DNA of 64,000 bases, from contig CP070646.1 of NCBI GenBank assembly GCA_020354435.1, positions 2,922,175 to 2,986,174 on the forward strand. The letters run 5' to 3'. A program made the position numbers and the translations under genes. Below are positions 3,963-55,030 of the stretch, piece by piece (positions within the stretch are counted from its first letter, which is position 1; each line of letters starts with the position of its first letter). Origin of the DNA: Gammaproteobacteria bacterium (lineage in GTDB: Bacteria; Pseudomonadota; Gammaproteobacteria; GCA-001735895). A model generated the notes under the pieces. That model was not told the origin of the DNA and searched no databases. It was given only the letters and a program-made list of their open reading frames with translations.

Positions 3963-4358
3963 ATGGCTACCGTTCCGCTGATCGAATACGAAGACGCGTC
4001 CGCCGGGGTTCGCGCCGTCTATGACGATATCAAGGAAGTCAGGCAAACCGATTTCATCAACAATTTCTGGAAAGGGTTGGCGAACAATCCCGCGCAACTG
4101 AGGCGGACCTGGAAGCAGATCAAGGCGGTGATGGCGCCGGGTGCGCTCGATCCGCTGACCAAGGAAATGATTTATGTCGCCGTGTCGGTCGCCAATTCCT
4201 GCGAATACTGTATCCATTCGCATGCGGCCGCCGCCCGCGCCAGGAGCATGACCGAGGAACAGTTCGGCGATTTGCCCGCCGTGATCGGTCTGGCGCACCA
4301 CACCAACGGCCTGGTCAGCACGCTGCAGCTCGAGGTCGACGACGCTTTCAAGGTTTGA
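3963..4358 (+). CDS. carboxymuconolactone decarboxylase family protein (AhpD-like)
   Basis: The CEYCIHSH motif, a 131-aa length, and the AhpD-like alkylhydroperoxidase core. Confidence 0.8.
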   Translation: MATVPLIEYEDASAGVRAVYDDIKEVRQTDFINNFWKGLANNPAQLRRTWKQIKAVMAPGALDPLTKEMIYVAVSVANSCEYCIHSHAAAARARSMTEEQFGDLPAVIGLAHHTNGLVSTLQLEVDDAFKV

Positions 4359-4492
4359 TAACAGTGAACGGGTAGCAGGGGCGTGCTACCTTTTTCCGTT
4401 TGCGGACAAAAACGTGGCCCGTTCGGGCCCTCGCGCGGTAGAATTTCGTCACGCAGCTGCGCTGGAATCCATAACGAAAGTCGACCGATAAC

Positions 4493-5857
4493 ATGAAGCT
4501 TAGTTTGAAGGGTGTTTTTGGCCTGGTGCTGGCGCTTGCGCTGGCGATAGTGGTCGCCGTCGTAATGGTGAAGAACAAATCGCCGCTGGAACACGTCGCC
4601 GCCGAGATGCCGAGACGCGCGGTCGAGGTTATTGCCGCGCGCCAGATACCATTCCGTACCCGTATCACGGCCTATGGCAATGTCGAACCTGCGATCACGC
4701 TCAACAGCATGGCCGAGGTCAGCGGCAAGATCAGTTATGTGCATCCCAATCTCAAGGCCGGCGAAACCATCCCTGCGGGCACGTTGGTGGTGCGCATCGA
4801 CGCCGAGGACTATGCCCGTTCGCTGCAGCAAACGCGCGAGGATTTGAAGGCGAGCCGTTCGGCACTGGCCGAGCTCGAGTCTGAGCAGGAATCGACGCGG
4901 CGTTCGCTCGAACTCGCGCGCAAGAATCTCGAAGTCGGCGAAGCCGAGCTTTCGCGCGTACGCGACGTATACCAGAAGCAGCTGGTGGCCAAGTCGACGC
5001 TCGATGCCGAGGAGCAGAAAGTCATTCAGCTGCGGCAGCAGGTCCAGGACCTGCAGGGAAGGCTGGACGGTTACCGCAGCCGCCGACAATCCACCCAGGC
5101 CCAGATCGCGCGCGCCGAGCAGGAGGTACAAAGTCGCGCAACCATTCTCGGCCGTACCGAAATTACGCTGCCGTTCGATGCGCGCATTGGCACGGTCAAT
5201 ATCGATCAGAATGAATTCGTTGCCGTCGGCGCGCCATTGTTCGAGGCGATCGATCTCAAGGGGGTAGAGATCCGCGCGCAGTTGCCGCTCGAGTCGATGC
5301 GCAACCTGGTCAGTCATCTCGAGAATAGCGTGGCATTGAACCGGCAGTTCGTGCAGACCGGTGGACGCATCAACGAAAGCCTGGGCCTGTCCGCGCGCGT
5401 CAGGCTCGTCAGCGATCTGCCGGAGGCAGTCTGGGAAGCGCGCGTGCTGCGCATCAGCGAGGCGATCGACGCCACGCGGCAGACGCTCGGCGTCGTCGTC
5501 GGTGTCGACGATCCTTACGAAAAGATCATTCCGGGCCGCCGGCCGCCGCTGTTGAAGGGTATGTTTACCGCGGTCGATCTGCTCGCGCCGGAGCGATCGG
5601 CATTGGTGATTCCGCGCAAGACCGTGCACGCGGGTCGCGTTTATATCGCCAACGGCGAAGATCGGCTGGAAATCCGACCGATCGAAATACAGCTCGTCCA
5701 GGGCGACCTGGTGGTGGTGCGCGGCGGTATCGAGGTCGATGAGCGCATCATCGTCACCGACCTGACGCCGGTGATCGAGGGCATGCCGCTCGAAGTCCGA
5801 TCGGCGCCGGCGATCGAGGACAGTCTGCGCCGGCGCGCGCTCGGAGCCGACCAATGA
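4493..5857 (+). CDS. efflux RND transporter periplasmic adaptor subunit (HlyD/MFP family)
   Basis: N-terminal TM anchor, a long coiled-coil, and barrel-sandwich motifs. Its ATGA overlaps the downstream RND permease. Confidence 0.8.
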   Translation: MKLSLKGVFGLVLALALAIVVAVVMVKNKSPLEHVAAEMPRRAVEVIAARQIPFRTRITAYGNVEPAITLNSMAEVSGKISYVHPNLKAGETIPAGTLVVRIDAEDYARSLQQTREDLKASRSALAELESEQESTRRSLELARKNLEVGEAELSRVRDVYQKQLVAKSTLDAEEQKVIQLRQQVQDLQGRLDGYRSRRQSTQAQIARAEQEVQSRATILGRTEITLPFDARIGTVNIDQNEFVAVGAPLFEAIDLKGVEIRAQLPLESMRNLVSHLENSVALNRQFVQTGGRINESLGLSARVRLVSDLPEAVWEARVLRISEAIDATRQTLGVVVGVDDPYEKIIPGRRPPLLKGMFTAVDLLAPERSALVIPRKTVHAGRVYIANGEDRLEIRPIEIQLVQGDLVVVRGGIEVDERIIVTDLTPVIEGMPLEVRSAPAIEDSLRRRALGADQ

Positions 5858-8800
5858 TTCGCTATTTTGCGGCGCATCCCACGGTCGCAAATATCCTGAT
5901 GTTCATCATTCTGCTGCTCGGCATTGCCGCGCTGCCAGGGCTGAACAAGGAAACCTTTCCCGAGATCCAGCTGTACAAGGTACAGGTCACGGTCAACTAT
6001 CCGGGCGCTAATGCTTCGGAGGTCGAGGAAGGCATCTGCAACCGGCTCGAGGACGCAACCGACGGTATCAGTTTTTTGAAGGAGCGCAGCTGCGAGGCGC
6101 GCGACAACTTCGGCACCATGGTGCTCGAAATGCAGGAAGATCAGGATCTGCAGCAATTCATCGACGACATCAATTCGGCGGTCGACGGTATCACCGATTT
6201 TCCGGACGACGCCGAGGACCCGCTGATCGACGAGCTCGGCCGTACCTCGGCGGTGGTAAGCGTCGCGATTAACGCGAACCTGTCACAGCCGGAACTGAAG
6301 GCGCTGGCGGAACATTACCGTTACCGCCTGCTGGCAATGCCGGAAATCCCGATGGTCGACGTCAGCGGCTTTTCGACACACGAGTACAGCGTGCTGGTCA
6401 AGGCTGAAACCCTGCGCCTTTATCGGCTCAGTATCCAGGATATCGCCAACCTGATCCGGCAGCAGGCGGTGGATCTGCCAGCGGGTACGCTCGATGCCGA
6501 CCAGCGGTCGTACCAGATCCGCGTCGAAAACGAACGCCGCAGTGTCGAGGAACTCGCCGATCTCGTGGTCTTGCACGACGAACGGGGCGGACGCCTGCGG
6601 CTCGGCGAAATCGCCACCATCACCGATGATTTCACCGACGAGGAAGTACGCGTCGAACTCGATGGTCGGCCGGCGGCGTTGCTGCAGGTCAGGAAAAACA
6701 CCGGCGACGATACGCTGACCGTCTACAACGCGGTACAGGCCTTCATCGATGCCGAAAACGCGGTGCTGCCGGAATCGACGCGGCTCGTGATCACGCAGGA
6801 TACGGCCTCGATCGTCGACGACCGGCTGCGTTTGCTGATCCGCAACGGCTGGCAGGGTTTGTCGCTGGCGACCCTGACCCTGTTCCTGTTCTTTAGCTGG
6901 CGTTATACCTTCTGGGTAGCGTTGGGTCTGCCGATCTCGTTCATCGGCGGGCTCATGGTCATGAGCCTGATCGGCATCACCATCAACATGATTTCGATGG
7001 TCGCGCTGTTGATGGCGATCGGTATCCTGATGGACGATGCCATCGTCATTTCCGAGAGTATCGAAAACGAGTATCGTTCCGGCAAGCCACCGCTGGAGGC
7101 CGCCGTCGCCGGTATCAGCCGGGTCGGCCGCGGCGTGCTGTCGTCGTTCGCGACCTCGGCCATGCTGTTCGGCAGCCTGCTGTTTTTGAAGGGCCACATC
7201 GGCCAGGTCATGGGCGTGTTGCCGGTGGTGCTGCTGTCGGTGCTGACGATCAGCCTGGTGGAAGCGTTTCTGATACTGCCGCACCACCTGGTGCACTCGC
7301 TGAAGAATCGCGCACTGCTGGACAAACCCGGCTGGCGCGATGCTTTCGAAGACCGCTTCGAGCGCCTTCGTGCCAGGGTCGGCAGTTTCGCCGATCTTGC
7401 GATCGACTATCGTTACCTGACCGTTGGCGTAGCGGTTGGCATATTCGTAGTTACCGTGAGCCTGTTCCCGGCCGGCCTGATCAAGTTCAAGGCGTTTCCC
7501 GATCTCGAGGGCAATGTGCTCGAGGCGCGTATCATCATGCCGCAGGGCACGCCGTTCGAGCGCACCGAGGCGGTCGTCAGCGAGCTGATCGCAAGCCTGC
7601 GCGAGGCCGAGCGGCAGTTACCGCCGGAACCGGAGGGTGAGCTGATTCGGCATGTGCAGGTGTTTTACAGCCACAACGCCGACGCCGGCGAGTCCGGCGC
7701 ACATCTCGCCACGATCAGTCTCGATTTACTCGATTCGGAACGGCGCAATACGTCGCTCAACGAACTGCGGCGGCGCTGGCTCGAGGCCACCGGTTCGATC
7801 TCCGACGCGGTATCGGTGCAGTTCAAGGAGCCGGTACTGGGGCCGGCGGGGCAGGCGATCTCGATCCGCCTGCAGCATGATGACCTGCAGCAATTGTCGA
7901 ACGCGTCGTGGGAGTTGCAGACCTGGCTCAACGGCTATCCCGGTGTTTCCAACGTGATGGACGATCTGCGGCTCGGCAAACCGCAGTTCAGCGTCAGCCT
8001 GCTGCCCGGCTCGCTGGTGTCGGGATTGAATGCCGAGCAACTCGCGCAACAGCTACGTGCCGCTTACCAGGGGGTCAAGGTCGACGACGTCTACAGCGGC
8101 CGCGAAGCCTATGAAATCAACGTCAGGCTCGACACCGATCGCGAAAACGCGTTGCGCGATTTCGAACAATTGAGCCTGTTCAACAACCAGGGCGTCGATA
8201 TCCCGCTGTCGGCAATCGCCGAGATCGATGAGAAGCGGGAATTTTCGCGTATCAACCGCATCAATCATCAGCGAACAGTCACGATAAATGGCGACATCGA
8301 CCCGGATATCGCCAACACCAACGAAATTATCGGCGATACCCGCGAGCGATTTCTCAGTGGTCTGCAGCAGCGTTACCCTGGCATGTTCATCAGCCTCGAG
8401 GGCGAGGTCAAGAACGCGCGCGAGACCAACCAGTCGATCCTGTTGGGATTCGTGCTCGGGATTTTCGGCGTCTATTTTCTGCTCAGTTTCCAGTTCCGCA
8501 ATTACCGCGAACCGCTGGTGGTGTTGATGAATATTCCGCTGGCGTTGATCGGCGTGGTCTGGGGACACAAGCTGATGGGTCTCGACATCACGATGCCGAG
8601 CATGATCGGATTCGTTTCGCTGGCCGGCGTGGTCGTCAACGATTCGATCCTGCTGGTCGAGTTCGTCAAGCGCCGCAGCCTCGAGGGTATGACGCTGCAC
8701 AACGCCGCCGGCCAGGCCGTACGCGATCGCTTCCGCGCGGTCTTCCTGACCTCGGTGACGACCATCGCCGGCATGCTGCCGCTGTTGTCGGAGACGAGCC

Positions 8801-9020: not shown

Positions 9021-9046
9021 TGTCATCCCCGCGCAAGCGGGGATCT
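9021..9046 (+). repeat. REP-like palindromic element TGTCATCCCCGCGCAAGCGGGGATCT (copy 1 of 5)
   Basis: An 8-bp stem (ATCCCCGC/GCGGGGAT) with a GCAA loop. Other copies are at 28334-28359, 43800-43825, 49955-49980 and 50034-50059, all in the same orientation. Confidence 0.85.
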
Positions 9047-9217
9047 TCCAGCGATCGCTCCACAGTGGCGCCTCGGACCCCGAGCCGGGGCCCATTTTTG
9101 CAAACCAGCATAAATCGCAAGTTGGACGATACACAAGACAGATACCATTCGGGGCAATGATTATCGCGTGATTGAGTAATTGATGCCGGCTCGGCGGCCG
9201 GCAAGACAACAGCTGCG

Positions 9218-28300: not shown

Positions 28301-28449
28301 TGCAAGGATTTGACAGGCTATAAATTGTTCGGATGTCATCCCCGCGTAAGCGGGGATCTCATACAGTGCTGACGATTGTTACCACGGGCCGTCCGGAGTT
28401 CCTGGATAATTGCTGCGCAATTTCCGGGATGACCTCGTAGTTGGGTTGG

Positions 28450-33506: not shown

Positions 33507-33668
33507 ATCATAGCGGGTTGGCGCCGCAACACAATGCCGCGTCGCAATTTACCCCGCGTTCGCTGGCGGCAAGGATTTTCTTCGCCCGGATACGCGGCTG
33601 GCAAACAAAAATGAATGAGGAAAAAATACCAGTTGGTTATAATCCCCTGCTTTTGGCCGACAATTTAA

Positions 33669-34592
33669 ATGAACGATACCCCCGCGACCGATTTGCATAG
33701 CTTTCAGGGTCTGATCCAGACCCTGCAAAACTACTGGTCCGGCCAGGGTTGCGTGATCCTGCAGCCGTTGGACATGGAAGTCGGAGCCGGCACCTTTCAC
33801 CCGGCTACTTTTATCAGGGCCATAGGACCGGAACCCTGGCGCGCGGCCTACGTGCAGCCAAGCCGGCGGCCGACCGACGGGCGCTACGGGGAAAACCCGA
33901 ACCGGTTGCAGCATTACTTCCAGTTTCAGGTACTGCTCAAGCCGTCTCCCGACGATTTCCAGGAACTTTACCTGGGGTCGCTGCAGGCGCTCGGTTTCGA
34001 TACGCTGGTGCACGATATCCGTTTCGTCGAGGATAACTGGGAGTCGCCCACACTGGGTGCCTGGGGTCTTGGCTGGGAAGTCTGGCTGAACGGCATGGAG
34101 GTCACCCAGTTCACGTATTTTCAACAGGTCGGCGGTCTCGAATGCCACCCGGTTTCCGGCGAAATCACCTACGGCATCGAACGTCTGGCGATGTATATGC
34201 AGGGCGTGGATAACATCTTCGACCTGGTCTGGACCCGCGGGCCGCAAGGTATCGTCACCTATGGCGATATTTACCACCAGAACGAGGTCGAACAGTCCAC
34301 CTATAACTTCGAACTCGCCGATACCGACGCGCTGTTCAACTGGTTCGATGTGTGCGAGGCCCAGTGCCAGTTGCTGATCGAAAAAAAGCTGCCGCTGCCG
34401 GCCTACGAACAGGTGATGAAGGCATCTCACGCGTTCAATCTGCTCGATGCCCGTCATGCGATTTCGGTGACCGAGCGCCAGCGTTTCATTCTGCGCGTGC
34501 GCACGCTGTCGCGCGCCGTCGCCGAGTGTTACTACGAATCCCGCGAAGCGCTGGGTTTTCCGTTGATCAAACAGGAGGCTGGCGATGACTAG
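33669..34592 (+). CDS. glyQ: glycine--tRNA ligase alpha subunit
   Basis: [34 protein letters not shown]…[28 protein letters not shown]. Confidence 0.95.
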
Positions 34593-34630
34593 CCTGTTTA
34601 TCGGCAATCGCGGCAGAAGGGTGGTTAGAT

Positions 34631-43416: not shown

Positions 43417-43700
43417 GGGCTGCTGCGCACCGCGATAGCGGCGTTACTTTTTGCAGCGAGACGCTCACATACTGATTTGTATGCTCGCGCCTTCGCTGCA
43501 AAAAGTGCCTTGCTCTCACGGTGCTCGCGACGCCCAAAACATTCGATTGTTTTAGAGTCTGGGCTGCTGCGCTCGTGATAGCGGCGTTGGAATTTCGCGC
43601 GAGACGCTCGCGTACCGGCCTGTACTGCTCGCGCCATCGCGCGAAATTCCGCCTTGCAGCTGCTTCGCTCGCGACGGTCTGCAGGCAAAAAACTTCCCCG
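43417..43700. repeat. tandem duplication (~144-bp period) of a unit containing a 14-bp-stem hairpin with compensatory substitutions between the two copies
   Basis: Unit 1 stem ACTTTTTGCAGCGA / TCGCTGCAAAAAGT. Unit 2 stem GGAATTTCGCGCGA / TCGCGCGAAATTCC. Of 14 stem positions, 7 differ, and all are compensated on the opposite arm. The flanks GGGCTGCTGCGC…GATAGCGGCGTT and GCTCGCGACG are conserved. Confidence 0.8.
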
Positions 43701-43799
43701 GGATTTGCTGCACTCTCTGAATTTCAAAGCCAGGTGACATTGCGGGCCTGCAGGCAAAAAGTGTTCAGACCATTGCTGTGTTTCAGGCTTTAAATTTGG

Positions 43800-43825
43800 T
43801 GTCATCCCCGCGCAAGCGGGGATCT
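43800..43825 (+). repeat. REP-like element TGTCATCCCCGCGCAAGCGGGGATCT (copy 3)
   Basis: Exact match to the family core, just 3' of tRNA-Arg. Confidence 0.85.
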
Positions 43826-43907
43826 TGTGATGGCGAGATACTCGAGTCCGATGGGTCGGTAAATGGCTTGGCTTTTTGGCGGTACGAGACCCATCGAAGG
43901 AGAGAAA

Positions 43908-44613: not shown

Positions 44614-44791
44614 CACTGCCGCTGCGCGGCAGCGTCATCCCGGAAAAAGCTAGCGTTTGCCGATGCGTCGGACCGCCGGGATCTCCCAAGCATTCCGCGC
44701 TCCAATCGGCGGCATAAATCCATCCATGCCCACGCGGCGGATTCATCCCGGAAACTGAATAGCGCTCATCCTGTCTTAACCCAAGCAACTG

Positions 44792-49549: not shown

Positions 49550-49570
49550 ATCCTTTAAACGGTATACTAA

Positions 49571-49604
49571 TCGGGGCCGGCTTCTGCCGGCCCCGATTTT
49601 TTTT
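49571..49604 (+). terminator. rho-independent terminator after amtB
   Basis: CGGGGCCGGCTTCTGCCGGCCCCG followed by T8. Confidence 0.8.
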
Positions 49605-49639: not shown

Positions 49640-49909
49640 ATGTTGTGCCATATCTACCGCAGTAACCTTAAACTCGACACCTACCTTTATCTCACGACCA
49701 AGGATGATTTTTCGGTTATCCCGGGGGAGTTGTTGCGCGTGTTCGGGCCACCCGAATTCAGTTTCAGTTTCGATTTAACCGAAGGACGTAGGCTTGCCAA
49801 GGAAAATACCGCAGAGGTAATCGAGAATCTCGAAACCAGGGGTTATCATCTGCAGTTGCAGGACGACGAGCTGATCGAGGAAATGCTGGCACGCAAAGCC
49901 ATTAATTGA
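49640..49909 (+). CDS. ycgL: YcgL-domain protein
   Basis: CHIYRSNLKLDTYLYLTTKDDFSVIPGELLRVFG is collinear with E. coli YcgL. Confidence 0.75.
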   Translation: MLCHIYRSNLKLDTYLYLTTKDDFSVIPGELLRVFGPPEFSFSFDLTEGRRLAKENTAEVIENLETRGYHLQLQDDELIEEMLARKAIN

Positions 49910-49936
49910 CATTTGAAAAGTAGCCCTGTATCTCAT

Positions 49937-50061
49937 ACAGGGCTACTTTTCAAATGTCATCCCCGCGCAAGCGGGGATCTCCGACCAAACCCGCGGTATC
50001 CTGTTGAGCGGTTTTACAGGGCTACTTTTCAAATGTCATCCCCGCGCTAGCGGGGATCTCC
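49937..50061 (+). repeat. two-unit direct repeat (46-bp unit ACAGGGCTACTTTTCAAATGTCATCCCCGCG[C/T][A/T]AGCGGGGATCTCC, 79-bp period); the first unit is fused to a 21-bp-stem hairpin just 3' of ycgL
   Basis: Units at 49937-49982 and 50016-50061, with a 33-bp unique spacer. A degenerate third copy (GTTATCCGCGCAAGCGGTGGTCC) lies near 50135-50160. Confidence 0.8.
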
Positions 50062-50198
50062 AAACCGCATACCGGAAGATCACCAACAACCACACGATAA
50101 CAAGATTCCGGCTTACGCGGGAAGTACCCAGATTTCGTTATCCGCGCAAGCGGTGGTCCGGCGTACCGGGATCATCTGGCTCTATGCCACTTACGCAG

Positions 50199-50987
50199 TC
50201 AGTGCCGACTGGAGTCCCGACCCGATAAGCGCTGCAGTAGCTGCTTAACCTCGTGTCGCAGAAAACGGCTTTTAATCGGCGGCGAGGTTGCCACTTCGTG
50301 GCAGTAGAAGCGGCAGAATAAATCCCATTCCCGATCACTGAAAATCTCGCCCTGCCGGGTTTGGCGACGGATGTTCAGCAAAAGCCTGGAGAGTGTTCTC
50401 TGCGTGGTGACACGTTTGGGATAGGGGTTTCGAACTTCGCGGTCGATCAGGGTTAATTGCATTGACGTACCGGGGGCGTCACTGCTGAAAATGTCTTTTA
50501 GCCGAATCGATCCAAAGAATCCGTTTTGATGCAGCTTGCCGACCAGCGTGGCGAAATGGATGACGATATGTTTACGCTGATGGCTGTTCGACGCCCGGTA
50601 AAGTTCGGACAAGTCCCGGCCATCGACTTTGCGGGTCATGATGAAGCCGTTTTTCGGCATGCCCAGTTTCAGGCTTTCGCCAACCACAACCACTTCGGCC
50701 GCATCGAAGCCGGCGCTGCGCAGCAATCTGTAATGCAACATTTCCCTGTAGGGTTTGCTATGTGCGAGTTTTCCACCGAAATAACTTTCGAGGGCAGACG
50801 CGAGCTTCTCGGCGTAAACGCGTTTAAGGAAGAAAATATGACCATCCAGCTGCAGCAGCCGTGTTTCGCGTCCCTAGGCCTGCTCGACCAGTTTGCCGGC
50901 GGTGGAATTCAGTATCGAGGTGTAGTCGTCCAGGCCGTGTCTGCGCAGTAGCGCTGCGTACTCAGGATTAACCTGTAGCCGAACCAT
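50199..50987 (-). pseudogene. InaA/Kdo-kinase-family (lipopolysaccharide kinase) gene interrupted by a single in-frame TAG at 50874-50876
   Basis: One continuous 263-codon frame: MVRLQVNPEYAALLRRHGLDD…KLVEQA-TAG-GRETRLLQLDGHIFFLKRVYAEK…LHQNGFFGSIRLKDIF…. It is collinear with E. coli InaA blocks (KKLYVKRM / ELERAGV…LLVTE / MHS…HG…RHIYV). The track splits it into ORFs 50874..51101 and 50199..50741, which are in the same frame. Confidence 0.65.
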
Positions 50988-50991
50988 ATGC

Positions 50992-52299
50992 TCAGAGTCT
51001 GTCGCGCAGCGCGTAGTAAGACATTCCGAGAACCATGCCCGGCCAGCGTAATAAATCGCCACCGGGAAAGGATCGGGTCGGAATTTTACCGAACAGATCA
51101 AAATTTTCGGCTTCGCCGGACAACGCGTCGGCGATCAGTTTGCCGGCCAGTGAAGCCATGGCAACGCCCTGGCCCGAGTAACCCTGGGCGAAATAAATAC
51201 TGTTACCGAGGCGTCCGAAGTGCGGCATCCGATTCAGCGTTACCGCGAGCGTGCCGCCCCAGGCGTAGTCGATACGGGTGTCGGCCAGCTGCGGATACAC
51301 CTGCAACATCGGCTTGCGCACGAAACTGGCGATATCGGTGGGAAAATTCTGCCGATAGTTTTCACCGCCGCCGAACAACAGGCGCTTGTCCGCCGACAGG
51401 CGATAGTAGTTGACCACGAAACGCGAGTCGGCAATCGCGATATCGCGAGGATTGATCCTGCGGAGTTGTTCGTCACCCAGCGGTTCGGTCGCAACGACGA
51501 AATTGTTGAGCGGCATGATCTTGCCCGCGACTCTTTTTTCGAGTTTGCCGAGATATCCGTTGCAGGCGAGTACGATGTGATCGGCTTCGATCACGCCGGT
51601 TGTGGTCTGCACACGGTTCGGTTTGCCTTCCCGGTAACCGCTGACCGGGCTGTCGCGGTAAATCCGGGCGCCGGCGGCAAGTGCCGCGGCGGCCAAACCG
51701 AGCGCGTAGTTCAGCGGATGCAGATGACCGGCGCCCATGTCGAGGCTGCCGCCGCAGTAGCCCTCGCTGCCGACCAGTTCGGCCATGGCGTCGCGCTCGA
51801 GAAACTCGATCTGGTCGTAGTCGTATTCCTTGCGCAGGAAATCGACGTATCGTCGGCTGTCTTCGTCGTAGCCGGATTTGTGGTTCGGATGCGCGATTCC
51901 GGGTTTCAGGTCGCAATCGATCTGGTGTTCGGCGACGAGCTGTCTGACGGTATCCTTGGCCGCTTCGGCTAGCTCCCAGAAGTGGCGTGCCGCGTCGGCG
52001 CCGACCATCTGCGTGAGCGTGACCTGATCCTTGCGCTGGCCGCTGCAAACCTGGCCGCCGTTGCGCCCGGAAGCGCCCCAGCCGGGTTTGCGTGCCTCGA
52101 GCAGGACCACATCATATCCACGCTCGGCGAGGTGCAGAGCCGAGGACAGGCCGGTATAGCCGCCGCCGATGATGCAGACATCGGTACGGCAGGAACCATC
52201 CAGCGTCTCCAGCTCGAGTTTCCGGTTGCGCGTGGCCTCGTAGTAGGAAGCCGGGTAGTGGCCAGTATCGCTGCGGTCCTGGACCAGTTTGAAAGCCAT
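50992..52299 (-). CDS. FAD-dependent oxidoreductase (gamma-glutamylputrescine oxidase PuuB-like / DadA family)
   Basis: VCIIGGGYTGLSSALHLAERGYDVVLLEA dinucleotide-binding motif, 435 aa. Confidence 0.8.
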   Translation of the reverse strand: MAFKLVQDRSDTGHYPASYYEATRNRKLELETLDGSCRTDVCIIGGGYTGLSSALHLAERGYDVVLLEARKPGWGASGRNGGQVCSGQRKDQVTLTQMVGADAARHFWELAEAAKDTVRQLVAEHQIDCDLKPGIAHPNHKSGYDEDSRRYVDFLRKEYDYDQIEFLERDAMAELVGSEGYCGGSLDMGAGHLHPLNYALGLAAAALAAGARIYRDSPVSGYREGKPNRVQTTTGVIEADHIVLACNGYLGKLEKRVAGKIMPLNNFVVATEPLGDEQLRRINPRDIAIADSRFVVNYYRLSADKRLLFGGGENYRQNFPTDIASFVRKPMLQVYPQLADTRIDYAWGGTLAVTLNRMPHFGRLGNSIYFAQGYSGQGVAMASLAGKLIADALSGEAENFDLFGKIPTRSFPGGDLLRWPGMVLGMSYYALRDRL

Positions 52300-52309
52300 G
52301 CGGCCCTTG

Positions 52310-53695
52310 TCAGGCGATCGCTTTATGGGTCAGGTCAAGGCACTGCCAGGCGCGTTCGACAAATACATCGACATCGGCCGGCTGCAGGATCAGCGGCGGA
52401 GAAATAATCATCGAATCGCCGACGGCGCGCATGACCAGGTTATTGTTGAAACAGAAGTCGCGGCAGATATTGCCGACGTTCAGGTCCTTGTCGAATTTGA
52501 CGTAATTGTCCTTGTCCTGGACCAGCTCCAGCGCACCCAGCATACCGACGCCGCGGACCTCGCCGACCAGCGGGTGATCGCCGAGTTCACGCAATCGCTT
52601 CTGCAGGTAAGGCGCGGTCTGTTCGCGGACCTTGTTGACGATGTCTTCACGTTGCATCAGCCTGATGTTGGCGATCGCAACCGCGGCGCAAACCGGGTGG
52701 CCGGAATAGGTATAGCCGTGATTGAGTTCGCCGCCCTGGTTGATCAGCACATCCATGATCTTGTCTGCGACCATGACGCCGCCGATTGGAAGGTAACCGG
52801 AGGAAATCCCCTTCGCCATCGGCATCAGGTCTGGCTTGAGGTCGTAGTAATCGCTGCCGAACCATTCACCGGTACGGCCGAACCCACAGATGACCTCGTC
52901 GGCGATCAGCAGGATGCCGTAGTGCTCGCATATCTTCTTCACTGCCGGCCAGTAGGTTTCGGGCGGTACGATGACGCCGCCGGCACCCTGGATCGGTTCG
53001 GCGATGAACGCGGCTACCTTGTCCACGCCGAGTTCCTCGATCTTGTCGGCGATCGACTGCGCCGCCTGGCGGCCGAATTCGTCGCGATCGAGATCGCTAC
53101 CGAGCTCGCAGCGCCTGGCGAACCAGTTGGGTTGCTCGACGTGTACGATATTCGGAATCACGCCGCCCTGCTTGTGCATGGCCTCCATGCCGCCCAGGCT
53201 GGAGGCGGCAATCGTGCTGCCGTGGTAGGCGTTCTTGCGGCTGATCACAACACGCTTTTCGGGTTTGCCGAGAATATCCCAGTAACGCCAGACCAGGCGC
53301 AGCACGGTATCGTTGGCCTCGGACCCGGAGCTGGTGAAAAACGCGTGGTTCATGTGCGCCGGGGTTACCTCCGACAACAGCGCCGACAGTTCGGCGGCGG
53401 GTGGCGTGGAGGTCTTGAAGAAAGCGTTGTAGTAGGGCAGCTGCTGGATCTGCGCGTAGGCCGCCTCGATCATGTCCTTTTGCCCGTATCCCATGTTGAC
53501 GCACCAAAGCCCGGCCATCATGTCCAGCAATTCGTTGCCGTCGGAATCGGTCAGGTATACGCCATCGGCCGATTCGATAATACGCGCCGGCTTTTCCTGC
53601 AAATCGTGCGGATTGGTAAACGGGTGCAGGTGGTGGCTATCGAGGTCCTGCCATTTTTCGGTATTGCTCGTATCCATCGCGGTTGCTTGGGTCAT
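52310..53695 (-). CDS. class-III (omega) aminotransferase, putrescine/beta-alanine--pyruvate transaminase-like (SpuC-like)
   Basis: LWCVNMGYG…, a PLP-lysine region, 461 aa. Confidence 0.8.
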   Translation of the reverse strand: MTQATAMDTSNTEKWQDLDSHHLHPFTNPHDLQEKPARIIESADGVYLTDSDGNELLDMMAGLWCVNMGYGQKDMIEAAYAQIQQLPYYNAFFKTSTPPAAELSALLSEVTPAHMNHAFFTSSGSEANDTVLRLVWRYWDILGKPEKRVVISRKNAYHGSTIAASSLGGMEAMHKQGGVIPNIVHVEQPNWFARRCELGSDLDRDEFGRQAAQSIADKIEELGVDKVAAFIAEPIQGAGGVIVPPETYWPAVKKICEHYGILLIADEVICGFGRTGEWFGSDYYDLKPDLMPMAKGISSGYLPIGGVMVADKIMDVLINQGGELNHGYTYSGHPVCAAVAIANIRLMQREDIVNKVREQTAPYLQKRLRELGDHPLVGEVRGVGMLGALELVQDKDNYVKFDKDLNVGNICRDFCFNNNLVMRAVGDSMIISPPLILQPADVDVFVERAWQCLDLTHKAIA

Positions 53696-53704
53696 AGTGT
53701 CACC

Positions 53705-55030
53705 TCAGACTTTTAACAGTAAGTGCTCCCGTTCCCAGGGACTGATTACGTTGAGAAAGTTATCGAACTCGACTTCCTTGACGCCGACATAAATGCCGAC
53801 GAAGGCTTCGCCGAGGACTTCGCCGATTTCCTTGCAATCGGCGAGACGTTGTAATGAATCGTACCAGTGCCGAGACAGCTGCATCGGTTCGTCGTAGGCG
53901 CTGCCTTGCAGCGGTTCGCTAGGCTTAAGGCCCTGTTTCATGCCGATGTAGCCGCAGGCCAGCGAGGTTGCGATCGCCAGGTAGGGGTTAACATCGGCCG
54001 AGGCGATACGATTCTCCACGCGCATTGATTTCGGGTTGTTGTCGGGCACGCGGAATCCGGTGGTGCGGTTGTCGAAATCCCAGTGAAAATTTATCGGCGC
54101 AGACATTTCTCGCACGATGCGGCGGTACGAGTTTACATAGGGCGTCATCAGCGCCATCGCCTCCGGCAGGAAGCGCTGCAGGCCGGCAATGTGGTTCAAA
54201 AGCAGTTCGTTGGGCATGCCTTCCGGCGTCGAGAAAATATTCTCGCCCGATTCCAGGTCCTCGACGCTCTGGTGGATGTGCATCGCGCTGCCGGGTTGCC
54301 CTTCCATCGGCTTGGCCATGAAAGTCGCATAAAGGTCGTGACGCAGCGCGGCCTCGCGTACGGTGCGTTTGAACAGGAAGGCCTGGTCGGCCAGTTCCAG
54401 CGGGTCGCCGTGCAGCAGATTGATTTCCATCTGCCCCATGCCTTCCTCGTGAATCAGCGTATCGATCTCGAGTCCCTGGCCCTCGCAGAAGTCGTACATG
54501 TCGTCGAACATCGGGTCGAAGTCGTTAACCGCATCGATGTTGAACGATTGGCCGCTGCGCTCGGCGCGGCCGGTACGGCCGATCGGGGGTAGCAGGGGGT
54601 TTTTCGGATCCAGGTTCGGCTGCAACAGGTAAAATTCGAGTTCCGGCGCGACCACGGGCTTCCAGCCCTCGGCGCGGTAGAGATCGATCACGCGGCGCAG
54701 TACTCCGCGCGGAGAAAACTCGATCGGGTTGCCGTCCACGTCGTAACAGTCGTGAATCACCTGGGCGGAGGGTTCGCGCGCCCATGGCAACTGGCGAATC
54801 GTGTACGGATCGGGTTGCAGCACCATGTCGGCATCGAGCGGGTTGATCTGTTCCCAGTTAGCGGGATAGTCGCCGGTGACCGACTGCATGAAGATGGCCT
54901 TGGGCATGCGTAGCGTGGTGCTATCGGTAAACTTTGCGGCAGGCATGATCTTGCCGCGCGCGGCGCCCGCGAGATCGGGCACGATGCACTCGACTTCGGT
55001 GATTTGGTGTTGCTCAATCCAGTCTTTCAT
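53705..55030 (-). CDS. glutamine-synthetase-family gamma-glutamyl-polyamine ligase (PuuA/SpuB-like)
   Basis: GS catalytic domain (…EFYLL…, …HIHQS…, NRTTGFRVP). The start was taken at Met14 of the track ORF (MKDWIEQHQITE). Confidence 0.8.
   Translation of the reverse strand: MKDWIEQHQITEVECIVPDLAGAARGKIMPAAKFTDSTTLRMPKAIFMQSVTGDYPANWEQINPLDADMVLQPDPYTIRQLPWAREPSAQVIHDCYDVDGNPIEFSPRGVLRRVIDLYRAEGWKPVVAPELEFYLLQPNLDPKNPLLPPIGRTGRAERSGQSFNIDAVNDFDPMFDDMYDFCEGQGLEIDTLIHEEGMGQMEINLLHGDPLELADQAFLFKRTVREAALRHDLYATFMAKPMEGQPGSAMHIHQSVEDLESGENIFSTPEGMPNELLLNHIAGLQRFLPEAMALMTPYVNSYRRIVREMSAPINFHWDFDNRTTGFRVPDNNPKSMRVENRIASADVNPYLAIATSLACGYIGMKQGLKPSEPLQGSAYDEPMQLSRHWYDSLQRLADCKEIGEVLGEAFVGIYVGVKEVEFDNFLNVISPWEREHLLLKV

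Follow-up and report, generated by a model that had tools for sequence, protein, structure and literature searches.

The window analysed here, 64,000 nt of contig CP070646.1 from a gammaproteobacterium, contains downstream of ycgL a compact cluster of palindromic sequences: a long perfect palindrome that begins on the ycgL stop codon, followed by two intact and two decayed copies of a short hairpin-forming repeat. An earlier note had taken the two intact units for a mini-array with a core resembling the type I-E repeat of CRISPR (clusters of regularly interspaced short palindromic repeats), with a degenerate orphan CRISPR remnant or an array of repetitive extragenic palindromic (REP) sequences as the likely alternatives. 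The features of the cluster are given below; bit scores refer to R1, a covariance model built from 86 distinct REP copies of other genomes.

49640–49909, + strand: ycgL coding sequence (CDS), 89 aa (from the list of open reading frames (ORFs); Pfam PF05166, YcgL, confirming the gene name in the earlier note)
49907–49959, no strand assigned: perfect palindrome with a 25-bp stem and a 3-nt loop, TGACATTTGAAAAGTAGCCCTGTAT ctc ATACAGGGCTACTTTTCAAATGTCA, arms 100% complementary
49936–49982, + strand: direct-repeat unit 1, 47 nt, consisting of the right arm of the hairpin and REP copy 1 (repeat search, family D1)
49955–49982, + strand: REP copy 1, with tag TGTC, 8-bp stem ATCCCCGC/GCGGGGAT, loop GCAA and tail CTCC (R1, 40.1 bits, E 3.6e-8)
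49983–50014, + strand: inter-unit stretch of 32 nt, the 'spacer' of the earlier note, unique in the window (no mobile-element match)
50015–50061, + strand: second direct-repeat unit, 47 nt, differing from unit 1 at a single position in the loop (GCTA; repeat search)
50034–50061, + strand: REP copy 2, inside unit 2 (R1, 36.3 bits, E 3.6e-7)
50105–50128, − strand: decayed inverted REP, GGTAC TTCCCGCGTAAGCCGGAAT on the minus strand (4 mismatches to a loose pattern; 9 bits, E 5, not significant alone)
50136–50159, + strand: decayed direct REP, CGTT ATCCGC GCAA GCGGTGGT CC (family D2, 88%; 11.4 bits, E 1.2, not significant alone)

The ycgL stop codon (TGA, 49907–49909) supplies the first three bases of the palindrome, whose arms (49907–49931 and 49935–49959) and loop together span 53 nt. 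A hairpin at this stop codon had been noticed before, with a stem put at 21 bp; the position held, and the stem proved to be a perfect one of 25 bp. At the base of the palindrome, which reads TGAC/GTCA, the stop codon lies on the left, while the right side is built from GTC, which is bases 2–4 of the REP tag, and the base that opens the REP stem. REP copy 1 adjoins the long hairpin with zero linker. In the predicted RNA fold the two helices likewise abut without a linker, the tag of copy 1 being paired into the long hairpin, unlike the unpaired tag of the family. Folding of the ycgL 3′ region gave a z-score of –8.35 relative to shuffles, with the long hairpin present in the minimum-energy fold.

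The direct repeat, TACAGGGCTACTTTTCAAATGTCATCCCCGCGCAAGCGGGGATCTCC, occurs in two copies with a start-to-start distance of 79 nt and a sole mismatch in the loop (GCAA vs. GCTA). This period is the one previously reported, whereas the unit measures 47 rather than 46 nt and the gap 32 rather than 33 nt. In strain L001, the loop of REP copy 2 is GCAA and the C run of its left stem arm contains one extra C. Only ~28 nt of the 47-nt unit correspond to a dispersed element; the remaining 20 nt, made up of TACAGGGCTACTTTTCAAA and the T that precedes the tag, belong to the local flank, namely the right arm of the hairpin. The 24-nt hairpin arm is repeated only at this site and nowhere else in the window. 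Neither this arm nor the 20-nt core found a match in 100 dinucleotide-preserving shuffles of the window, which served as chance control.

Further downstream, the decayed inverted REP at 50105 forms a body-to-body (head-to-head) pair with REP copy 2, and the degenerate core of the decayed direct REP (50142–50158) lies 100 nt beyond the second core. The earlier note had placed a degenerate third copy about 70 bp further on. Syntenic loci of relatives (among them L147–L152, L154, L160, L168, L169 and L217) were fetched via YcgL homologues, 460 of which were found. In one of them, L149, the orthologue of the inverted REP is well preserved (1 mismatch), and an orthologue of the decayed direct REP is present as well.

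A search of the window for the core, ATCCCCGCG(C/T)(A/T)AGCGGGGAT, revealed starts at 9025, 28338, 43804, 49959 and 50038, in each case with TGTC before and CT after it, so that all five copies follow the pattern TGTC-ATCCCCGC-GNNA-GCGGGGAT-CT. In line with this, model R1 called exactly five full-length copies in the window; every one of them lies on the + strand, and the scores are 36–42 bits (E 1e-8 to 4e-7). The elements outside the ycgL cluster, including two of a longer type, are the following.

9021–9049, + strand: single REP, 51 nt past the stop codon of an AcrB-type gene and ahead of a terminator-like hairpin (39.7 bits)
28334–28362, + strand: REP with loop GTAA, downstream of an aminotransferase gene (39.1 bits)
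28401–28434, − strand: long-type REP-like partner, GGTCATCCCGGAAATTGCGCAGCAATTATCCAGG on the minus strand (read directly from the sequence, not scored by R1)
43800–43828, + strand: single REP, ~80 nt from tRNA-Arg(CCG) (41.7 bits, the top-scoring copy)
44633–44687, + strand: long-type REP frame with tag CGTC, in which CGTCATCCCGG ... CCGGGATCTCCC enclose a variable insert; a cytochrome c gene ends ~20 nt before it

All five intact copies are intergenic, and four of them follow + strand genes in convergent gaps. Their tails read CTCC, CTTC, CTCA and CTTG. Head-to-head pairs in the window are confined to 28334/28401, where the second element is inverted relative to the first, and 50034/50105, and in both the partner is divergent or decayed; the rest are single or head-to-tail.

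Beyond the window, a scan of one genome per species with the query GTCATCCCCGCGNNAGCGGGGATC located the 22-base core at no fewer than 120 genome loci (of 8 kb each, L002–L121) from many phyla. The matches listed include alpha-, beta-, gamma- and deltaproteobacteria, Patescibacteria, Planctomycetota and Gemmatimonadota, as well as Omnitrophota, Hydrogenedentota, Melainabacteria, Fibrobacter and metagenome-assembled genomes (MAGs) of Bdellovibrionales; among them, the exact core occurs at most twice per locus. It was also present on 25 viral contigs. In the window and at these loci the copies are dispersed, those at the loci mostly as single copies or inverted pairs, with no regular arrays among the matches listed. 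Alignment of the copies with their flanks yielded the consensus (C/T)GTCATCCCCGCGAAAGCGGGGATCCAG. Of 112 copies, approximately three quarters are accompanied by another one 9 to ~80 nt downstream, which by eye is nearly always inverted, with tags pointing outward. Stem pairing amounts to 95% over the 86 distinct cores, and changes on both sides are seen at six of the eight base pairs. The dispersed unit is ~28 nt long: an unpaired (C/T)GTC tag precedes an 8-bp stem that opens with AT and encloses a 4-nt loop, and a short tail follows.

This description matches that of the CGTC-1 REPs, defined by a CGTC or TGTC tag, an 8-bp stem with A and T as its first bases, a 4-nt loop and a short tail (PMC3733652), a family that is represented by dRS3 in Neisseria and also includes RPE-6 of Rickettsia (Di Nocera, De Gregorio & Rocco 2013, PMC3733652). 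The window copies display the tag, the AT-starting 8-bp stem and the 4-nt loop, and they are multi-copy and extragenic, lying mostly downstream of genes or between convergent genes as is usual for CGTC-1. We therefore read the ycgL locus as a small cluster of CGTC-1-type REPs in a convergent intergenic region, with a probability of roughly 0.87; of the two alternatives originally put forward, it is the REP-type array that the unit fits. A sequence of the same type, CGTCATTCCCGCGAAAGCGGGAATC, is carried on a Neisseria construct. While the REP family itself is known, what is new here is the host clade, the atypical head-to-tail arrangement and a palindrome at a stop codon that mirrors itself; dRS3-type REPs and a small cluster resembling the Neisseria arrays are hereby recorded in an uncultured gammaproteobacterial clade.

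Several observations weigh against the assignment. The tail, mostly CCA in CGTC-1, is CT(C/T) in this clade; most copies in other genomes have a CCA(G) tail, and the CT tail is common to some gammaproteobacterial copies (L020, L072, L077 and L121). Head-to-tail pairs are negligible in the CGTC families (PMC3733652), which makes the tandem pair of the window atypical. Di Nocera et al. found no dedicated transposase for CGTC REPs (PMC3733652). A 7-bp stem shared with the type I-E CRISPR repeat, taken up below, has no positive explanation within this reading; the 32-nt gap did not stand out in the window as a decayed left arm of the palindrome (p 0.62); and any function of the cluster is putative. 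CGTC-1 REPs elsewhere are mostly arranged head-to-head, whereas those of the window are mostly single or head-to-tail, and one window copy differs from the family by its fusion to a long palindrome, specific to this locus, into which the tag, normally unpaired, is drawn.

Comparison with related systems revealed likenesses and differences alike. In Neisseria, dRS3 (ATTCCCN8GGGAAT) forms the arrays termed NIMEs, or neisserial intergenic mosaic elements (Bentley et al. 2007, PMC1797815). As in these, several dRS3-type palindromes in the window are interleaved with segments of 20–100 nt, and array length varies among close relatives. However, the window cluster is tiny (two intact and two decayed copies) compared to the long Neisseria arrays; dRS3 of NIMEs flanks members of RS repeat families, whereas the 24-nt hairpin arm of the window is repeated only locally; and NIMEs were reported as Neisseria-specific (PMC1797815), while the host here is a gammaproteobacterium. 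The master sequence of a Neisseria REPIN (a doublet of inverted REPs), ATTCCCGCGCAGGCGGGAATC, has been tied to a Group 2 RAYT, or REP-associated tyrosine transposase (Bertels & Rainey, bioRxiv 10.1101/2021.07.10.451892): its differences from the window core are limited to the loop and a single compensated stem pair, and, as in the REPIN–RAYT system, copies at orthologous sites persist across diverged relatives. Here, the difference is that intact window copies lie mostly outside inverted doublets and that the window contains no RAYT gene. With the REPs and bacterial interspersed mosaic elements (BIMEs) of E. coli, finally, the cluster shares its nature as a group of GC-rich extragenic palindromes at gene 3′ ends, but those are GTAG-tagged and belong to an unrelated sequence family, the window REPs being CGTC-tagged.

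The REPs may owe their spread to an HUH tyrosine transposase (RAYT), a route suggested for Neisseria. A Pfam scan of 54 window ORFs revealed housekeeping genes only, with no transposase or RAYT domain. When ORFs within 2 kb of 120 copies were clustered, only generic paralogue families recurred (acyl-CoA dehydrogenase, ABC ATPase, short-chain dehydrogenase, response regulator and UvrD), with no IS110, RAYT or cas genes among them. REPs are usually species-specific, and near-identity across phyla is therefore odd. The exact 22-base core extends to far more phyla than the five listed for CGTC-1 in 2013 (PMC3733652), with the proviso that some MAG labels may be wrong.

In other genomes, one to three partial 5′ half-copies, each consisting of GTCATCCCCGC and a further ~8 nt, often stand ahead of a complete REP with a period of ~20–21 nt, as exemplified by GTCATCCCCGCCATCTTTCT, which occurs twice ahead of a complete hairpin. 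Such runs were seen at L064:7826–7880 and L061:1–200 (minus strand), and also in L005, L031, L057, L074, L082, L101, L106 and L113. They look like the product of repeated aborted copying at the hairpin; we know of no description of such runs of REP 5′ half-copies.

The rival view of the cluster as a degenerate orphan type I-E CRISPR array, in which the palindromic units would be decayed repeats and the 32-nt segment an old spacer, starts from a genuine resemblance. A 7-bp stem, TCCCCGC/GCGGGGA, is identical in the E. coli K-12 repeat GTGTTCCCCGCGCCAGCGGGGATAAACCG, the 4-nt loop differs by one base, and by hand alignment 21 of 27 positions match between the type I-E repeat and the window unit. 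When the K-12 CRISPR-I locus was fetched and searched with model R1, every repeat was matched at 16–17 bits (E ~0.008). These matches are, however, confined to the 18-nt stem-loop UCCCCGCGCCAGCGGGGA (model positions 6–23), with tag and tail, which the type I-E repeat lacks, remaining unaligned, and the window copies score 36–42 bits in the same model; the likeness pointed out in the earlier note therefore holds for the stem-loop (17 bits) and not for tag or tail. There is, moreover, no conserved 3′ handle of the ATAAACCG type, as the 3′ flanks of the window copies share only CT. Rfam added a weak match to CRISPR-DR28, at 20 bits vs. a threshold of 35 and on the opposite strand.

A gap of 32 nt equals the length of a type I-E spacer, but the period is 79 and then 100 nt, not 61, and the decayed cores are irregularly spaced and of mixed orientation. 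Rather than three or more identical repeats at a constant period, the locus contains only two 47-nt copies, of which 20 nt are locus-specific flank. The unit stands alone at 9021, 28334 and 43800 and occurs in one or two copies at each of the genome loci recovered in the scan. Nor did the Pfam scan detect a cas gene among the 54 ORFs of the window, in agreement with the earlier note. A comparison of the 32-nt segment with phage and plasmid sequences, which that note had recommended, gave nothing credible by blastn: no phage match, and a best plasmid match of E 0.7, a weak test given the single 32-nt query. Since copies are dispersed and single, their spacing is irregular, and neither cas genes in the window nor a credible spacer match were found, the CRISPR reading fails, and we regard an orphan CRISPR remnant as almost certainly wrong.

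At the gathering threshold, Rfam reported only the tRNA-Arg in the whole window. A permissive scan of 49850–50250 gave sub-threshold hits to miRNA-precursor, Leu-leader and CRISPR-DR28 families, all driven by generic hairpins, and 18 motif-carrying loci gave nothing at the motif. We read the shared stem as two families having in common a very stable hairpin made of a C run and a G run; that CGTC-1 REP stems and type I-E repeat stems share ancestry or a binding protein strikes us as very unlikely. Removal of this false CRISPR lead carries a practical lesson: CGTC-1/dRS3 REPs share a stem with type I-E repeats, and their tandem reiteration can mimic mini-arrays to a reader or a repeat finder.

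Among the relatives, L149 (YcgL 89% identical) shows all four parts of the window cluster in the same order: hairpin plus REP, a second module, an inverted REP and a decayed REP, with a module period of 104 nt and a second module that keeps the hairpin apex CCTGTAtttcaTACAGG. L147, with ycgL third codon positions 96% identical to those of the window, has only one module and lacks ~190 nt of the window cluster. One module, with a long-type REP, is likewise found in L148, L151, L152, L160 and L217. In many other relatives, ycgL runs almost into the convergent gene and the palindrome is absent. As the number of modules varies among relatives, the cluster grows and shrinks in the manner of BIME or NIME arrays. 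The exact YcgL protein is recorded on one 6.5-kb contig (GCA_006227885.1) that is 99.2% identical to the window.

Tandem reiteration of a REP together with flanking DNA has been described for REP clusters (PMC3733652) and recurs in L124, L061 and L064. The 47-nt repeat would best be explained by tandem reiteration of a REP and a stretch of the adjoining flank, the usual mode of growth of REP clusters, and not by CRISPR spacer acquisition. In the window, similarity between the two segments that follow the REPs was not significant (p 0.66); the idea of tandem modules is retained because L149 shows them clearly. L124, a viral contig from IMG/VR, has two head-to-tail REP pairs (10900–11160 and 13720–13919) with periods of 81 and 86 nt and AT-rich repeated flanks, mini-arrays that resemble that of the window. 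In the window itself, the 32-nt gap contains CCTGT 10 nt ahead of the next right arm.

In the more distant L168 and L169 (YcgL 75% identical), a head-to-head REP pair directly follows the ycgL stop codon, within the first 110 nt after the gene, with no long palindrome. The 3′ end of ycgL is therefore a recurrent REP site.

Within the cluster, it is the long palindrome that is out of the ordinary: relatives conserve its structure while its sequence varies. They provided ten distinct variants, all of which begin with TGA-C, end with GTCA and directly abut the REP stem. Each of 240 pair cells holds a standard pair, and 16 of 24 pairs have changed on both sides, a result reached by none of 500 shuffles. 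Many of the changes are transversion flips (AU->UA, CG->GC), and only one G.U pair occurs. Arm identity is decoupled from synonymous identity of ycgL (Spearman 0.15). The window and L147 are 93–99% identical in the flanks, yet of the 15 variable arm pairs they differ at five, each time with the change mirrored. The apex (CCTGTA/TACAGG) and the base are conserved; for the base, this may simply mark the limits set by two constrained neighbours, to the left the stop codon with the C behind it and to the right the REP tag. A survey of 498 tag sites across ~1.5 Mb of fetched sequence found the palindrome only after ycgL.

Because mirrored double changes occur at or above the neutral rate, beyond what selection on RNA pairing alone would produce, we infer that one arm is copied from the other. 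The palindrome would thus be kept perfect by its arms copying each other, probably through template switching or conversion within the hairpin. Template switching in quasipalindromes is known in E. coli. The ten variants, mirrored even between near-identical strains, constitute a compact data set on the upkeep of perfect palindromes in bacteria.

Several known elements were considered for the palindrome. The apex, CTGTAT-N3-ATACAG (49926–49940 and orthologues), resembles two LexA-box half-sites; these span 16 nt in the LexA (SOS) box, and the candidate was rejected for spanning 15 nt in all variants but L154. An attC site and IS200/IS605 ends were discarded as well: the hairpin has neither extrahelical bases nor R/L boxes, and no sequence relationship links the two hairpins.

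More broadly, hairpin and REP might form a miniature transposon (a foldback MITE, or miniature inverted-repeat transposable element, or an IS200/IS605 derivative of the palindrome-associated kind) that had inserted behind TGAC. Perfect inverted arms resembling terminal inverted repeats, presence of the module in some relatives and absence from others, and its local duplication would agree with such an origin. Yet the arm sequence has no second site in the window or in any fetched locus, the arms vary between lineages by scattered point changes rather than by replacement with a family consensus, and no transposase was found nearby among the 54 ORFs (Pfam). The left and right ends of IS200/IS605 elements are related in sequence, unlike the two hairpins here. 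We give this origin little credence.

Regarding function, amtB, the gene upstream of ycgL, ends with a canonical terminator (49569–49598). A terminator of this kind was rejected for ycgL: neither of its hairpins is followed by a T-run, and the gene has none besides these hairpins. Two abutting RNA helices at the ycgL 3′ end would be expected to protect the transcript. By analogy to E. coli, where, according to work cited in PMC12306157, ribosome stalling and reduced expression result from REPs that lie no more than 15 nt from a stop codon, the first helix could also slow terminating ribosomes and damp YcgL synthesis, a proposal we make because this helix starts on the stop codon in every variant. 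Both 3′-end protection and translation damping are put forward by inference only.

Such considerations lead to a further alternative, namely that the palindrome and its abutting REP are mainly a selected, ycgL-specific device (a translation attenuator, an RNase III site or a 3′-end stabiliser), to which the other REPs are incidental. The palindrome always begins at the T of TGA, occupies the same position and is 100% paired in ten lineage variants, with apex and base conserved and no occurrence away from ycgL; a stop-proximal REP effect has its precedent in the E. coli work just mentioned; and in one subgroup the arms are more conserved (0.87–0.93) than the third codon positions of ycgL (0.63–0.69). 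Against this stand the many relatives that lack the palindrome and in which ycgL nearly meets the convergent gene, as well as the pattern of change: if RNA pairing alone were under selection, G.U pairs and mismatches should be more frequent, and mirrored transversions at neutral rate would not arise. The device is also a prediction from sequence. We consider this explanation possible but doubtful. Under the reading as a REP cluster, a tentative model, for which we see odds well short of even, is that the 53-nt palindrome corrects itself and is kept, together with the abutting REP, as a stop-proximal control element of YcgL. Whether stop-proximal hairpins also adjust translation in bacteria other than E. 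coli is a question that this palindrome lends itself to; if the model is true, a self-correcting control palindrome would be a natural, phylogenetically replicated instance of palindrome homogenisation coupled to gene regulation.

Besides the short REP, a second, longer REP type was noticed, in which the same frame, GTCATCCCGG...CCGGGATCT, surrounds a nested or variable inner hairpin. It is represented in the window at 44633–44687 and 28401–28434, and in relatives at L150:4958–4994, L152:4968–5019 and L151:10317–10354. In several relatives, this type takes the place of the short REP behind ycgL. It has also been retained at the orthologous site that follows the cytochrome c gene, orthologues of the 44633 element being present in L150 and L152.

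All six primary REPs of the window (9021, 28334, 43800, 44633, 49955 and 50034) lie on the + strand, and GC skew is positive window-wide (0.024–0.052); their shared orientation relative to replication and to the upstream genes is only suggestive (n = 6). Just upstream of the REP at 43800, a direct repeat, ctgcaggcaaaaa, occurs twice ~70 nt apart (43669–43760), in the gap between a GntR-aminotransferase gene and the tRNA-Arg gene.

On the far side of the ycgL cluster, the segment 50199–51101 (minus strand) encodes a 180-aa ORF with a match to the Kdo/WaaP (InaA-type) kinase profile (E 7.6e-4; 19.4 bits vs. a cutoff of 21.3) that covers the C-terminal two thirds of the profile, and, upstream of it, a 75-aa ORF with no Pfam match. 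The sub-threshold hit fits a truncated inaA-like gene, the gene that the earlier note had called pseudogenised, and does not prove it; the segment is probably a decaying gene. This inaA-like stretch of ~800 bp is absent from L149, L151 and L152, where a gene for an FAD oxidoreductase comes directly after ycgL. Several long ORFs elsewhere in the window, at 4172–5890 (−), 33549–34607 (−) and 52289–53716 (+), have no Pfam match and are probably not genes; for the stretch matching 52289–53716, the gene call in relatives is an Aminotran_3 gene on the opposite strand.

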